Of a DNA stretch of 54,996 nt, positions 36,932 through 41,793 are shown one piece after another. The translations under genes and the position numbers were made by a program. The DNA is taken from positions 1-54,996 of IMG/VR virus record IMGVR_UViG_3300045988_171436; one strand, written 5' to 3'. The notes beneath the pieces are model-generated. The model saw only the letters and a list, made by a program, of their open reading frames with translations, did not search any database and was not told where the DNA came from. This DNA comes from a virus (taxonomy: Duplodnaviria > Heunggongvirae > Uroviricota > Caudoviricetes). Numbering within the stretch: position 1 is the first letter of the stretch; each line of letters opens with the position of its first letter.

Positions 36932-36990
36932 GTAATAAAAGTAGGACAAAACTGTGACACATAAAGCCTCGCAATGGTTTGCAAGGCTTT
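36932..36990. repeat. 59-bp imperfect direct repeat, copy 1 (partner 41734-41793), with internal stem-loop
   Basis: About 86 percent identity between copies; internal dyad AAAGCCT-CGCAATGGTTTGCA-AGGCTTT. Confidence 0.7.
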
Positions 36991-37092
36991 GAACGCTTCT
37001 GTATTGATGATGTGACGCGGTTTCGTTTATTTCCATTCTATATATTGATGTCGATTTTTATGAATATAGAGCATACGGATAAACTGCAGTGT

Positions 37093-37127
37093 GATTAGAG
37101 TCAAAGTAATAGTTGTTGACTCTAATC
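37093..37127. terminator. Perfect 12-bp stem-loop downstream of acyltransferase gene
   Basis: GATTAGAGTCAA ... TTGACTCTAATC. Confidence 0.5.
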
Positions 37128-37145
37128 ATTGCAAAGTGACTTTAC

Positions 37146-38213
37146 TTAATGAAATTTATCTCGGATGAATTGTTGCGATGGTTTTTCAATGAATATATAT
37201 GACATATAGCTAATTGCCATTAATGTAAGCATGAATAAAATGAATACCTTGGGGCTGTAAAAAAGATCGCGTCCATAGCCAATCTTGTCAGCTAAATAAA
37301 CAACAATGATTTGTAAAGGAAAATGTAAAAGATAAGATGAATAACTGATATCGCCCAACCATTCAATTTTTTTCCCAAAATCGTTTCGTATTGCGCTAAT
37401 TGATACAAGGAAAAAGATTATGGAGGTAAATCCGAATAAGATAATTGAGAATATATCTGCTACTTGCAGGGTAAAGATAACTCCCCATGAGATCAATAGA
37501 AAAACACAAGCAAAAATAAAAAATAACTTTGCGCTAATATTTTTTATGGCCGCAATCGTAATTTTATAAGTCAGACCACCAATAAAGAAAGAGAATGCGC
37601 CGATCATTATGGGATTGTTAATTTTGAAAAAGTAGTACGACAATGCAACTATTAAAATTGATATGAATGTTGTTTTTGATGTGAACTTGCATAATATAAA
37701 AAATATCATGTACATAAGTACTTCAATCGACACGGACCATGTCGGGGCGTTGAAGGACCAACCTCGCTCAAATCCCCATGATTGAATCATCAATAAATTC
37801 AGAATGGCATGGTAAATGTCATTCATAGGATAAACAAAAAAATAATTATGACTTTTAAAGAAAATAATTTGTAATATTGCCACGGCAGCAAATGTAAATA
37901 TATAAAGTGGATATAATCTACTGACACGGTTAACTATAAAAGTTTTTGCTGAGGTTTTATTGCTGTGTATATTGTCAGCGTATAGATAAAAAAATATGAA
38001 TCCAGAAATCATAAAAAACAATTCGACAGCATATAAACCGTAATGATAAAAGACGGAAAAAAATTCATAAAAAGGTTGGCGGTTTATGATTATGTCAGAT
38101 GCAGCATTCTTTTTCATAAAAAAATGTTGCCAATGCCATAACACAACGGAAAGTGCGGCAAATCCTCTCAGAACATCCAGGGTATATATTCTCTTCCCAA
38201 AAACATTCGTCAC
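37146..38213 (-). CDS. Integral-membrane acyltransferase (acyltransferase-3 family; O-antigen acetylase-like)
   Basis: 355 aa, about 10 TM segments, N-terminal LDVLRGFAALSVVLWH motif; very AT-rich. Confidence 0.8.
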   Translation of the reverse strand: MTNVFGKRIYTLDVLRGFAALSVVLWHWQHFFMKKNAASDIIINRQPFYEFFSVFYHYGLYAVELFFMISGFIFFYLYADNIHSNKTSAKTFIVNRVSRLYPLYIFTFAAVAILQIIFFKSHNYFFVYPMNDIYHAILNLLMIQSWGFERGWSFNAPTWSVSIEVLMYMIFFILCKFTSKTTFISILIVALSYYFFKINNPIMIGAFSFFIGGLTYKITIAAIKNISAKLFFIFACVFLLISWGVIFTLQVADIFSIILFGFTSIIFFLVSISAIRNDFGKKIEWLGDISYSSYLLHFPLQIIVVYLADKIGYGRDLFYSPKVFILFMLTLMAISYMSYIFIEKPSQQFIRDKFH

Positions 38214-38704
38214 AACGAACCTCTTTTAATAAAGTCAAGTGATAATGAAAGATAAATATTGTAAACGAAAAAGCACTGGACTGGAACATATATCTCTGCC
38301 TATAATTTAACTAGGAAAATTTTACTAACGCAGTCATAATTCGTTCATGTATACCAGATGAAAGTACATGTTCTATGAAATAGGGTTTTGCCTGGAGTTT
38401 GAAGGTTTTTAACGATTATACCTGTTTAATCGACTCCCCATGTTTTTTGACATTATCCACCGCACACGATACTGGATGCCAGGTAAACTGATTTGCTGGC
38501 ATAAAGTCACTGAGAATTTTTTACCAACAATATCTTGCCACATCTTTTCCCGCACAGTTTCGGCAATAGAATCAGCGGGCAGCGGTCATCAATATTCACC
38601 AGACATTGATCTGCCGCACTATCTGACCGGTGTCCTGCTGAGAATACTAATTTCTTTTTTTGCAAGTGCTGTCCAATCATGATTGGGGGGGGGCCGGCGG
38701 AGTT

Positions 38705-38744
38705 GAAACCGCAGGTACGTTGTATGCAATAACGTGCTGCGGTT
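38705..38744. repeat. Conserved hairpin element, copy A (partner 39725-39765)
   Basis: GAAACC + stem + core ACGTTGTATGCAATAACGTGCT; stem AAACCGCAG/CTGCGGTTT. Confidence 0.6.
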
Positions 38745-39538: not shown

Positions 39539-39724
39539 TTTGCAATATCTGTGAATTATTTGTGAGACGTATATTAATGAACATTGCAAGGGCTCACAAC
39601 CAGTAGCTTTGAGAAAGCCATCGGGAAAATGAGGCTAACCCTTTGAATTTACATAGCGCAAAAAGATACCTTTCCTCATAATGTGAGCTAATTTTATGTT
39701 TCGTTTGATGATCGGATCGGTCTC

Positions 39725-39765
39725 GAAACCCGTAGCCACGTCGTATGCAAGAACGTGCTACGACT
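39725..39765. repeat. Conserved hairpin element, copy B
   Basis: GAAACC + stem + core ACGTCGTATGCAAGAACGTGCT; stem GTAGCC/GCTAC differs from copy A but pairing is preserved. Confidence 0.6.
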
Positions 39766-40101
39766 GGCTGGTGAACTTCCGATAGTGCGAGTATTGAATG
39801 ATTTCCAACTGTTATCGATTTTGCGTATTTTTTGCATGAGAGGATTTTTACCTCCTCCCACCGATCCTCCATGGCTTTACGCCAGTGTCTCTGGTCTGCT
39901 ATGTGCCAGAAGCGGACGTTGCGGGACGTCAGATATCTAAAAAAACTAATGGTCCGCTTGGATAGATACTTACACAGGATGCAATAAAGAGTTTCTATTT
40001 CTTTGTGGTAGCAAACTTTGATTTCTGAAGGATAATACCTCCAATAAGTTGAAATCACATATATCGCTAAAGACTCTATACAACAACCAAGAGAGACCGC
40101 A

Positions 40102-41487
40102 ATGGATAGTGTCAGTAGTGTTGAGCGTTTAAGAACAAAAGCTTTTTATCAGTTGCTTGTGGATAGGCTTGGAACTGAGGCCTGGGCTGCTCGCAAAGCT
40201 GCATATTTCAAGCGCATAAGAGAGAAGGAGGCTAAGTTTAACATCAATCTGCCGATAGAGCCCCAGCTCTTCATACCAGCAGAAGATGACATCGACTGGT
40301 ACATTCTGGCGTCGTATCTGTCTCATGATTTTCCATATAGTGATGCTACTTACAGCAGCAGACGTATCTACCCCTATGCTATGGCCATCGGAGCTGTTGC
40401 AGACCAGCTTCGCAAAGTCCCATACGTCGATGATGTTCTGGACAAAATGCTAGCAAATAACAATAAACCAGAAACTCAAATTTTTGAGCTGCTGACGGCA
40501 TCGTTCTACCTAAAGAACGGCTATGAGGTTGCCTTCATCCCAGAAAGCAGCATTGTTTGGCCCGATGGAAAGACCAAAAAATCACCGGATATGCTTGTCA
40601 AGTTAGGTGATCTGGAGTTCTACGTCGAGTGCAAAAGGTCGGATAAGCAAACCAAGTACTCAAAGACAGAAGAGCAAGCCTGGGCCAACATCTGGCATCA
40701 ATTGAGCCAACATATGCTCAAAGTCGCACCATGGAACATTGTCGATATAATTTTCCATGAGCAGGTCGCCAGTGTGACTCCGGCAGACGTTATTAAAGCG
40801 GTGAATCTAGCCATTAAAGGGGGGACGGGAAAAGCTAATGAAGGTTCAATCAGTGTGGGAATACGAGCCATCGACAAATTAGGTCTCAGACGTCACTACA
40901 GAAAATTTTCAGTCAGAGCCAATAGCCCACAGCATGAATTGCTGGTATTTGGGGATCTAGATAGCAATGAGAAACGAAGTATCTCGACTATCGCTCAGAG
41001 AGTTATTCGTCCTGGCACCAATAACGATATTCTCAACATTTTTGTAGAGGATGTTGCAAAGTGCGTTGGAGCTCAGTGGCGCTGCGATCATGAGATTTCT
41101 CTTGGCCTCAGATCCAAGCATTTCAAGAGCTTGCTCAATGATGGAGTCATGCAGATTCCCCCTGATCGTGCTGGCGTGGTGCATATTTGGTATGAGACTT
41201 GCGAAGGCATAGATATTGAAGAACTACGTAGGGATAAAAACATGGAGCATATCTCGGCCTACGATGCCTCTAAAACAACTGTGTTGGGTGCTTTCCTGCA
41301 TGCCGTTAATTATTACCCATTAGAGGACAACTATGAGTGGGCTGAGACTGTTCAAGACTTTGCCCGTGTCCCGGATTTGATGGGGCTCTTCCTTAGACAG
41401 CCATTGATGCTTACATCTGACTCGACGCGTGGGGTCGAAGGTGTCACACATTGGGAGCAAGATAAGGCCGCAAAAAGCATGCGTTGA
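40102..41487 (+). CDS. PD-(D/E)xK nuclease-like protein with large unknown C-terminal region (461 aa)
   Basis: ELLTASFYLKNGYEV ... SPDMLVKLGDLEFYVECKRSDK gives the E / PD / ExK triad spacing. Confidence 0.5.
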   Translation: MDSVSSVERLRTKAFYQLLVDRLGTEAWAARKAAYFKRIREKEAKFNINLPIEPQLFIPAEDDIDWYILASYLSHDFPYSDATYSSRRIYPYAMAIGAVADQLRKVPYVDDVLDKMLANNNKPETQIFELLTASFYLKNGYEVAFIPESSIVWPDGKTKKSPDMLVKLGDLEFYVECKRSDKQTKYSKTEEQAWANIWHQLSQHMLKVAPWNIVDIIFHEQVASVTPADVIKAVNLAIKGGTGKANEGSISVGIRAIDKLGLRRHYRKFSVRANSPQHELLVFGDLDSNEKRSISTIAQRVIRPGTNNDILNIFVEDVAKCVGAQWRCDHEISLGLRSKHFKSLLNDGVMQIPPDRAGVVHIWYETCEGIDIEELRRDKNMEHISAYDASKTTVLGAFLHAVNYYPLEDNYEWAETVQDFARVPDLMGLFLRQPLMLTSDSTRGVEGVTHWEQDKAAKSMR

Positions 41488-41733
41488 AAGTGGCTGGAAT
41501 ATGGCGATACTGGGAACATAACTATTCACCGCGTTTCATAACCCACTCTCGGCTGATTAACACACGTTATCGTTGGAGGAAAGGACCAATTCCCTACGTC
41601 CGCTCCTCGCTCATAACAGACATAAACTTCAGTTATGGCATAAAGGTATGCATGCTGGGTGGGGAAAGTATGAAGGAAAAGAAGACTGCTGCGCCGTTTG
41701 TCGTCACGTTTATCTTCATTGGCTATGCAAGTC

Positions 41734-41793
41734 GTAATACAAGGTGGGACAAAACTGAGACACATAAGGCCTCGCAATGGCTTGCAAGGCTTT
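41734..41793. repeat. 59-bp imperfect direct repeat, copy 2
   Basis: Aligned to 36932-36990. Confidence 0.7.

Follow-up and report, generated by a model that had tools for sequence, protein, structure and literature searches.

The window analysed here, the whole of a 54,996-nucleotide (nt) stretch of a virus of the class Caudoviricetes (IMG/VR record IMGVR_UViG_3300045988_171436, positions 1 to 54,996), contains the right end of a prophage, where accessory genes lie between a tail-fibre assembly gene (Tfa) and the attachment site attR in thrW. A preliminary description of this DNA pointed to two imperfect direct repeats around a 4.8-kb block of these genes and took them for a conserved boundary sequence that mediates exchange of the cargo in between. 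The repeats are real, but the comparison of related loci maps the exchange to a different pair of sites, named A and B here, which enclose a single cassette within the block. Our overall reading, to which we give a probability of about 0.6, is that the repeats are boundary hairpins, that cargo is exchanged at A and B, and that a recombinase would be supplied in trans. The features of the right end are the following.

36445–36885, plus strand: tail-fibre assembly gene Tfa (Pfam ID PF02413, E 4e-20), the last structural gene
36938–36990: copy 1 of the 53-nt lambdoid element, with its hairpin at 36963–36990, between the convergent Tfa and acyltransferase genes
37146–38213, minus strand: Acyltransferase_3 gene (Pfam ID PF01757, E 2e-24), constant in relatives
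38706–38745: terminator-like 17-bp hairpin downstream of the PD-T4-3 gene
38765–39589, minus strand: GIY-YIG nuclease gene, LEM-3-like, assigned to PD-T4-3 (Pfam ID PF22945; PADLOC ID PDLC04031)
39730–39893: conserved left flank of the cargo slot, homologous to lambda 24162–24326 and found in many Escherichia coli prophages
39894–39917, plus strand: site A, GTCTGCT-ATGTGCCAGA-AGCGGAC, left boundary of the variable cassette
39918–41597, plus strand: variable cassette, with one 461-residue gene in this prophage
40102–41487, plus strand: open reading frame (ORF) of 461 residues, the cassette cargo, with a weak, sub-threshold AHJR-like nuclease match
41598–41621, plus strand: site B, GTCCGCT-CCTCGCTCAT-AACAGAC, right boundary of the variable cassette
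41622–41740: conserved right flank, homologous to lambda 27346–27464 and found in thousands of E. coli prophages
41670–41804, plus strand: 44-codon ORF beginning MKEKKTAAPFVVTFIFIGYASRNTRWDK, with a hydrophobic centre, overlapping copy 2
41741–41793: copy 2 of the 53-nt element, with its hairpin at 41766–41793, between the accessory region and attP/attR
About 41836–41916, plus strand: attR, a truncated 3' fragment of thrW, the right end of the prophage

Baseplate and tail-fibre genes lie upstream of the Tfa gene, and the repeat pair brackets every gene from Tfa to the thrW attR. The non-structural genes between the copies are as first described, namely an acyltransferase gene, a GIY-YIG gene, and the 461-residue ORF. 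The acyltransferase is likely an O-antigen or lysogenic-conversion enzyme. The GIY-YIG protein matches the PADLOC model for PD-T4-3 (PDLC04031) with an E value of 3.8e-140 over 255 of the 256 profile positions, and its gene is identified by this profile match as the single-gene anti-phage system PD-T4-3. For the 461-residue protein, no PADLOC or NCBIfam family was matched, and the nuclease-like AHJR match stayed below threshold.

The fragment at 41836–41916 contains the P22-type core ATGCGAAGGTCGTAGGTTCGACT at 41877–41899 (P22 core sequence for the comparison taken from PMC8022706). It is a truncated copy of thrW, and ARAGORN found no whole tRNA there, so it is assigned as attR. The att-proximal 172 nt are 96.5 to 97.7% identical to the attP region of SfI, SfII, and SfIV, and sequence similarity places the prophage in the SfV/SfII-like group, integrated at thrW.

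Sites A and B as the boundaries of the variable cassette

Six thrW relatives were inspected, all with different cargos, and in each of them the homology to the window ends at 39915–39922 and resumes at 41595–41604, so that the difference is confined to 39918–41597. The six alternative cargos are a "lysogenic conversion protein," a DUF6650 protein, a SIR2 protein, a protein kinase with a second gene, a lipase, and two hypothetical proteins, making seven cargos at the slot with the cassette of this prophage. The best E. coli relatives keep the sequence from 36400 to about 39918 and from 41595 to 41916 at 95 to 99.8% identity. The acyltransferase and PD-T4-3 genes are constant, being retained in all of the 30 best relatives listed and likewise in 7 of 7 loci inspected. 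The repeat pair therefore does not delimit the exchanged unit, as had been proposed; judged from these alignments, the cargo exchange maps to A and B.

Both sites were derived from a 26-nt inverted repeat with 85% complementarity, the longest in the region. Each has 7-bp inverted arms around a 10-nt asymmetric centre (7-10-7), and B is close to A read from the opposite strand, with two differences in the centre. The A/B pattern has four matches in the window against 0.02 expected. In its arrangement of arms and centre, the predicted layout is that of heterospecific tyrosine-recombinase core sites.

The cassette of this prophage is not restricted to thrW. Together with its inner half-sites, it is found at 99.7% identity in the P2-like phages 899 and GMG73, where it lies between the genes G and FI, i.e., in the Z/fun hotspot; the match to the P2-like phage begins at 39894. 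It is found again, at 98% identity, in an unrelated prophage remnant beside a tRNA-Phe gene. The outer left half-sites of this one cassette are GTCTGCT in the window, GGCTGCT in the tRNA-Phe remnant, and GTCCGCT in phage 899, and its outer right halves in the three contexts are ATAACAGAC, ACAGCGGAC, and TCAGCGGAC. Different cassettes in the thrW context, in turn, have a common GTCTGCTATGTGCCA on the left and ATAACAGAC on the right and diverge immediately inside. The cassette-side half-sites thus travel with the cargo while the outer halves stay, which places the crossover within (N)TGTGCCA of A and TCGCTC of B. The junctions fall within the same 7 to 8 nt for seven cargos and three contexts, and the aligned half-sites confine the predicted crossover to about 7 nt per site. 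The exchange is probably site-specific, and the 1.7-kb cassette would be swapped at A (39894–39917) and B (41598–41621) and not at the 53-nt repeats.

The same slot can be recognised in lambda (NC_001416). The window is 85% identical to lambda between 39730–39920 and 24162–24352 and 83% identical between 41596–41736 and 27320–27464. Lambda has an A-like site at 24327–24349, with a centre one base shorter, and a B site at 27322–27345, and between them lie ea31 (HNH nuclease) and ea59 (AAA ATPase), a non-essential gene pair. In more than 20 lambda-like phages, the match to the window starts exactly at 41598. The 53-nt element follows about 125 nt to the right of B in both lambda and the window, and from this shared position we regard it as part of the conserved right flank of the A/B slot. 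In P2, fun(Z) lies between an A site at 15343–15366 and a B site that precedes FI by about 200 nt. The window slot thus has its sites in common with the P2 Z/fun hotspot; it differs in lying beside attP in a lambdoid or Mu-like-tailed prophage, where it is equivalent to ea31-ea59 of lambda. The pinE-mcrA region of the K-12 element e14 was considered as a further instance of this hotspot and was rejected, having neither A/B sites nor homology in the flanks.

Two side observations concern the left of the slot. PD-T4-3 always lies directly left of the variable slot, also in an unrelated e14-like remnant with the order pinE, PD-T4-3, cassette. A second boundary repeat is formed by 17-bp terminator-like hairpins on both sides of PD-T4-3, at 38706–38745 and, diverged, at 39730–39766, with a weaker third copy at 39979–40000; they are homologous to lambda 22573–22608, just after lambda tfa, and to lambda 24162–24195.

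Cassettes with these boundaries also occur in tandem. Phage 899 carries two, in the order A-cargo-B-18 nt-A-cargo-B. Arrays of this form are seen in loci L005 and L016 to L019, with cargo in both orientations and often far from a recombinase gene. The B-18 nt-A doublet that joins neighbouring cassettes is present in 1122 of the 5426 E. coli genomes searched, and 40 of 40 sampled matches lie under no annotated feature. As a unit of about 66 nt, the doublet of B, spacer, and A folds with a z score of −5.2.

A candidate recombinase for sites A and B

A gene for a 200-residue tyrosine recombinase lies among the cassettes in three of four randomly inspected chromosomal doublet sites. The protein matches PF00589 with an E value of 5e-19 and has the catalytic domain only, with no N-terminal core-binding domain. 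The motifs LRGCD, QQKTG, HSLRR, LLGH, and RYL contain the catalytic residues R, K, H-x-x-R, H, and Y, and by its predicted fold and these residues the protein is classed as a tyrosine recombinase. The nearest solved structure is XerD (E about 1e-3, aligned to the catalytic domain). The protein scores far below all NCBIfam cut-offs, with 58 bits for the XerA/integron-integrase model, whose cut-off is 220. The family is widespread, with 61 to 97% identity across Enterobacterales, Alteromonadales, Pseudomonas, and Betaproteobacteria and matches in more than 547 species, and it is found in 928 of the 5426 E. coli genomes (about 17%), including Nissle 1917.

The gene is accompanied by sites of the A type. 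An A-like site, CAGCAGCC-CTGTGCCANN-AGCGGAC, follows the recombinase stop codon by 26 to 45 nt in E. coli, Providencia, and marine gammaproteobacteria, and more distant homologues have a hairpin and then GGCCA-NN-AGCRGNC after the stop. Of 79 species loci, 16 have the strict core no more than 100 nt from the stop, compared to a background of 0.4% for random 100-nt windows. The recombinase loci are enriched 9-fold in core sites, and some of them have an inverted copy just upstream of the gene. In E. coli, the module with the recombinase gene is bounded by a B-like site, in inverted orientation, and an A-like site, and where its flanks differ between genomes, the homology stops at these two sites.

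In Providencia and marine gammaproteobacterial islands, the recombinase gene is located between cargo modules that encode an aldo-keto reductase and arsenic and copper resistance. These islands are integrative elements at ssrA and other sites, and in Providencia an A-type site is also found 3' of the element's P4-type integrase gene.

We consider the 200-residue enzyme a candidate that, encoded elsewhere, would act on A and B in trans. The window contains no recombinase gene of this type, and no enterobacterial phage in the collection encodes one; the enzyme, if it is the right one, must therefore act in trans. The proposal that A and B are heterospecific inverted core sites of this uncharacterised family of catalytic-domain-only recombinases, supplied by the host in trans and driving a natural hybrid of integron and recombinase-mediated cassette exchange (RMCE), is tentative, and we rate it somewhat below an even chance.

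Several observations count against it. Besides the absence of the gene from the window and from the phages, the recognisable core follows the stop codon in just 20 to 30% of the distant homologues, and the link between the recombinase and A/B is, from sequence comparison, one of association only. Isolated A and B, unlike the doublet, fold no better than shuffled sequences. No clean empty hotspot was found: in 17 genomes the flanks of the slot abut with the cargo deleted, and this sole cassette-free form is a microhomology deletion, as read from the junction sequence of one of the 17 (E. coli 15.03CC, positions 4150–4190 of locus L114), with TATG microhomology inside the A centre and 27 nt beyond B lost. 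In the 15.03CC prophage, the space between PD-T4-3 and the left flank is occupied instead by a gene pair for a cytosine methyltransferase and a restriction enzyme.

Some of these points would suit an exchange without a dedicated recombinase, in which A and B would be nothing more than short conserved stretches, such as protein-binding or transcription signals, and the Red, RecET, or RecA function of phage or host makes a homologous or short-homology crossover at the sites and their 160- to 200-bp flanks. Long conserved flanks are common to the lambdoid relatives on both sides, the TATG deletion and the missing recombinase gene fit such a process, and short-homology recombination at A/B could produce similar junctions. 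However, the P2-like context has only the 24-nt sites in common with the window, and yet its cassette is 99.7% identical to that of the window and is joined inside the sites. The recurrence of the junctions in the same 7 to 8 nt, the arm-centre-arm layout known from tyrosine-recombinase core sites, and the A-like site beside a conserved recombinase gene across distant taxa also argue against this alternative, which we regard as a live one, though less likely than not.

The recombinase-driven exchange that we favour resembles two known systems. With integrons it would share a recombinase gene with an adjacent primary site, single-gene cassettes, and an imperfect-palindrome doublet between cassettes. 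In contrast to integrons, the enzyme is a 200-residue, catalytic-only protein far below the IntI and Xer cut-offs, the orientation of the cassettes varies, and their platform is dispersed among phages and islands. The enzyme is not an IntI-family integrase (58 bits against 220), and the A/B consensus contains no GTTRRRY cores. The pdif modules of Acinetobacter, which depend on XerC/XerD, and engineered RMCE are alike in that modules are bracketed by two inverted sites, and such bracketing is present in the window, where the A/B pair is 85% reverse-complementary. The dif site is a 28-bp XerC-6-XerD site. A and B (7-10-7) are unlike dif (11-6-11) in sequence, and the candidate enzyme is not XerC or XerD. 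By analogy with pdif and RMCE, exchange is conceivable between any two replicons that carry the site pair, and a swap could thus take place between any two DNAs with A and B around their cargo, be they lambda-like phages, P2-like phages, this prophage, or defence islands.

If this reading is correct, single defence or conversion genes move among the ea31-ea59 locus of lambda, Z/fun of P2, SfV-like prophages, and chromosomal defence islands, and the exchange would supply the mechanism that has been missing to explain how phage defence hotspots turn over their cargo. Such hotspots are reportedly also treated by Vassallo and coworkers (2022). Recombination at cos ends has been proposed for hotspot turnover by Rousset et al. 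(2022; PMC9122126), who do not mention flanking sites, and flanking sites are not mentioned in a 2024 hotspot survey either. We found no description of A and B in the searchable literature, a scope that leaves outside Nilsson et al. (2004), whose title names site-specific recombination, and Odegrip et al. (2006); priority for the sites is uncertain. The slot that turns over has nucleotide-precise boundaries, and the same sites bound the lambda and P2 loci and the cassettes of E. coli defence islands. They offer a sequence handle for finding cassettes, and hence new defence genes, in any genome, and a defined site pair with a candidate recombinase makes hotspot exchange experimentally approachable.

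The 53-nt repeats and the lambdoid att-proximal element

A repeat search aligns 36938–36990 with 41741–41793 over 53 nt at 91% identity without a gap, and BLAST extends the pair to 36932–36990 and 41734–41793 (90% over 60 columns, one gap). A 47-nt degenerate consensus has only two matches in the 55-kb window and none in 100 shuffles. These results bear out the two direct repeats around the right-end block, for which an identity of 86% had been given, a slightly low value; the stem-loop noted in both copies is present and was slightly under-extended. The element consists of about 25 conserved bases and then a hairpin, AAAGCC-T-C-GCAA / TGGY / TTGC-A-A-GGCTTT, in which both copies end (12 pairs, 4-nt loop). 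The hairpin folds on both strands, and the minus strand of copy 2 allows about 17 pairs. The hairpin is retained among the seven phages compared, where 88% of pair cells remain paired.

An 86-nt query around copy 2 matches 108 phage records, and both copies align over 46 to 66 nt at 81 to 98% identity with SfII, P22-like phages, phage 21, and lambda. The annotated records examined have the element once each, just outside attP and on the opposite side from int, and it adjoins attP irrespective of the integrase, the att site, and the neighbouring cargo. Carriers of the single att-proximal element are lambda, 21, P22-like phages, epsilon34, and SfI, SfII, SfIV, and SfV. The annotations differ. 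In SfII (KC736978), where the element lies between gtrA and attP, and in phage L (MW013503), it is annotated as a terminator. In epsilon34 (EU570103; integration at argU), it is labelled "possible terminator for transcription from int" together with two "putative CII-binding sites," a suggestion discussed in PMC2629481, and in phage 21 (OL657228; integration at icd), CII sites are annotated at the element. Copy 2 lies 43 nt before the tRNA-like att fragment, the canonical position, and copy 1 is not in the canonical position. By sequence (81 to 98%) and position, copy 2 is assigned as the lambdoid att-proximal hairpin element, the homologue of lambda 27471–27529. This prophage differs from the other carriers in having a second copy 4.8 kb upstream, after the Tfa gene. 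For the att-proximal element, no assay of function was found in the literature.

The conservation of this sequence at the edge of the accessory region in 108 phage records agrees with the initial view that the pair is not a transposition footprint. A target-site duplication of a transposon or insertion sequence (IS) was likewise rejected, as the pair is 53 nt long at 91% identity, no transposase gene lies between the copies, and each copy stands alone in relatives.

From its position, copy 2 might be a retroregulator of int of the sib/tI type in P22/SfV-type modules, with copy 1 as a relic from another phage. Such a hairpin would terminate int transcripts or offer a site for RNase III, and integration would uncouple it from int. 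It is the first hairpin met by int-sense transcription past attP in SfII, L, and epsilon34, the epsilon34 annotation agrees with this role, and the minus-strand hairpin of copy 2 reaches its 17 or so pairs. In lambda, however, the homologue at 27471–27529 is distinct from the far stronger, U6-tailed hairpin at 27543–27578, which we take, from the lambda map, to be tI/sib. In lambda, epsilon34, and L, pairing is also poorer on the int-sense strand than on its complement. Copy 2 is like tI/sib in being a hairpin beyond attP from int that is split from int on integration, but its sequence is different, and identity with tI/sib is ruled out. We give the retroregulator a small chance of being correct.

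The CII annotations suggest another function, in which the hairpin is a binding site for CII (P22 C1) and forms a CII-activated promoter for conversion or cargo genes when lysogeny is established. Every copy has a TTGY-N6-TTGY repeat on one strand, lambda, epsilon34, and L have three phased TTGY repeats, and the minus strand of the window copies contains the CII-type TTGC-N6-TTGC in TTGCAAACCATTGC and TTGCAAGCCATTGC. The repeat is found on the better-pairing strand in every copy, because the hairpin arms contain the palindrome TTGCAA, so that it follows automatically from the arms and gives no support for a function as single-stranded RNA or for a fixed promoter direction. The window sequence has no TANNNT-like −10 hexamer 13 to 14 nt after the second TTGC, the spacing expected of a pRE-like promoter on the relevant strand. 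Pairing is better on the minus strand for both window copies, SfII, and phage 21, and on the plus strand for lambda, epsilon34, and L, whereas the orientation of the cargo does not flip. Leftward transcription from copy 1 would merely be antisense to the tail genes, which are all that the minus strand offers downstream of it. A CII-dependent promoter is thus quite improbable. GGGAC repeats upstream of the element were also considered as Int arm-type sites and were rejected, as phage 21, with its different attP at icd, has the same upstream 20 nt.

It had been named as a refutation of the boundary idea that the similarity could be part of a coding sequence, which here would be the 3' end of the small gene at 41670–41804. 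The 44-codon ORF with its hydrophobic centre overlaps copy 2, and a 51-codon ORF is annotated at its place in phage 21 and lambda-like phages, in phage 21 as a putative membrane protein; the product could be a small membrane peptide. About 15 N-terminal codons are conserved in lambda before the frame diverges. However, the frame in lambda differs by a 1-nt indel, the indel upstream is not a multiple of three, copy 1 is intergenic and lies in no plus-strand ORF, and SfII, L, and epsilon34 keep the element while the 5' part of the ORF is missing. Coding conservation of the repeat was rejected on these grounds and is very improbable as an explanation of the similarity.

The distribution of copy 1 bears on the original proposal, according to which the 53-nt copies are linkers where homologous recombination swaps the whole 4.8-kb block. 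The similarity of copy 1 to other phages is limited to the element itself. The stretch 36853–37200 is found in 48 of the E. coli genomes, in all 48 with the adjacent 3' end of the acyltransferase gene, and the similarity of other E. coli Tfa homologues stops at 36852 (query position about 403), inside the gene. Single-copy relatives exist for each copy: SfII, SfV, SfI, and SfIV have copy 2 only, SfII with a different terminator after its acyltransferase gene, and a relative that integrates at dusA has copy 1 without copy 2. A diverged acyltransferase relative has no copy 1. These occurrences restrict copy 1 to the lineage with the acyltransferase gene and show each copy to be independent of the other. 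They differ at 5 of 53 positions, and the 3' flank of copy 1 resembles the variant in mEp213 and HK542; since the copies are different sequence variants, the pair would have arisen by joining two phage lineages and not by duplication in place. We infer that having two copies is incidental to the joining of modules that came from different lineages.

Different variants are also what the linker proposal expects from different parents. Its geometry fits, in that a deletion between the copies would leave Tfa, one element, and attP, and the element does lie at the right border of the accessory region in over 100 phages whose cargo to its left is unrelated, gtr operons and the b-region genes of lambda being examples. 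But copy 1 never occurs without the 3' end of the acyltransferase gene, and the empty site that had been suggested as a check, with Tfa, a single copy, and att, is absent among the 5426 E. coli genomes. The variation confined to the A/B interval, with the acyltransferase and PD-T4-3 genes kept in the 30 best relatives listed, and the missing counterpart of copy 1 in SfII, SfV, and the diverged acyltransferase relative also speak against it, and 53 nt at 91% identity are a poor substrate for homologous recombination. Exchange of the whole block at the repeats is improbable. What stands of the proposal is a conserved element at the edge and, in spirit, the idea of a boundary sequence at which cargo is exchanged; the sequences and the interval chosen were the wrong ones. 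Linkers in lambdoid mosaicism and "morons" with terminators of their own are said to go back to Susskind and Botstein, Juhala and coworkers (2000), and Clark and coworkers (2001). These are likewise short conserved non-coding elements at module joints, with accessory genes between tail and att; the 53-nt pair differs from them in showing no sign of use in exchange. Taken alone, the flagged repeat is an ordinary lambdoid hairpin that is present twice, and it is unsuitable as a marker of cargo boundaries.

In the reading that we prefer, the right end of the prophage would be a mosaic of small modules, each with its own short boundary element, and the 53-nt copies would most likely serve as a bidirectional transcription stop. 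Copy 1 would keep the tail operon and the acyltransferase gene that converges on it apart, and copy 2 would insulate the accessory genes from attP and int in the phage and from host DNA in the prophage. For this role, some features of the hairpin are unfavourable. The tails after the stem are UUUACAUGUUUUG or UUUGAACG on the plus strand and UUAUGUGU on the minus strand, and the U-tracts are poor on both strands. A simple terminator scan does not call copy 1, and the minus strand of copy 2 is the sole one to pass. The strand that pairs better flips between phages, and no significant covariation was found in the hairpin among seven sequences, which vary too little.

The chromosomal island right of attR

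Beyond attR the window continues into an IS element and then into a defence island of the chromosome, which encodes Hachiman (HamA and HamB) and also has an AbiJ-like gene.

42265–43385, minus strand: IS3-family element, directly 3' of attR
43832–45190, minus strand: 452-residue ORF in a very A+T-rich stretch (28 to 30% G+C)
46964–47030, minus strand: B-18 nt-A site doublet, between the Hachiman helicase gene and a 332-residue gene (45809–46807)
47158–50373: Hachiman helicase gene, chromosomal island
50333–51172: HamA gene, chromosomal island
51473–52837: AbiJ-like gene, chromosomal island

The 452-residue ORF belongs to no family found, with sub-threshold methyltransferase and neprosin matches only. 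An Rfam scan of 36500–47300 gave nothing but the IS frameshift element, an IS1222-type frameshift signal at 43038–43155 inside the IS3-family element. Where the window has this element after attR, relatives carry a LysR pseudogene and paoD.

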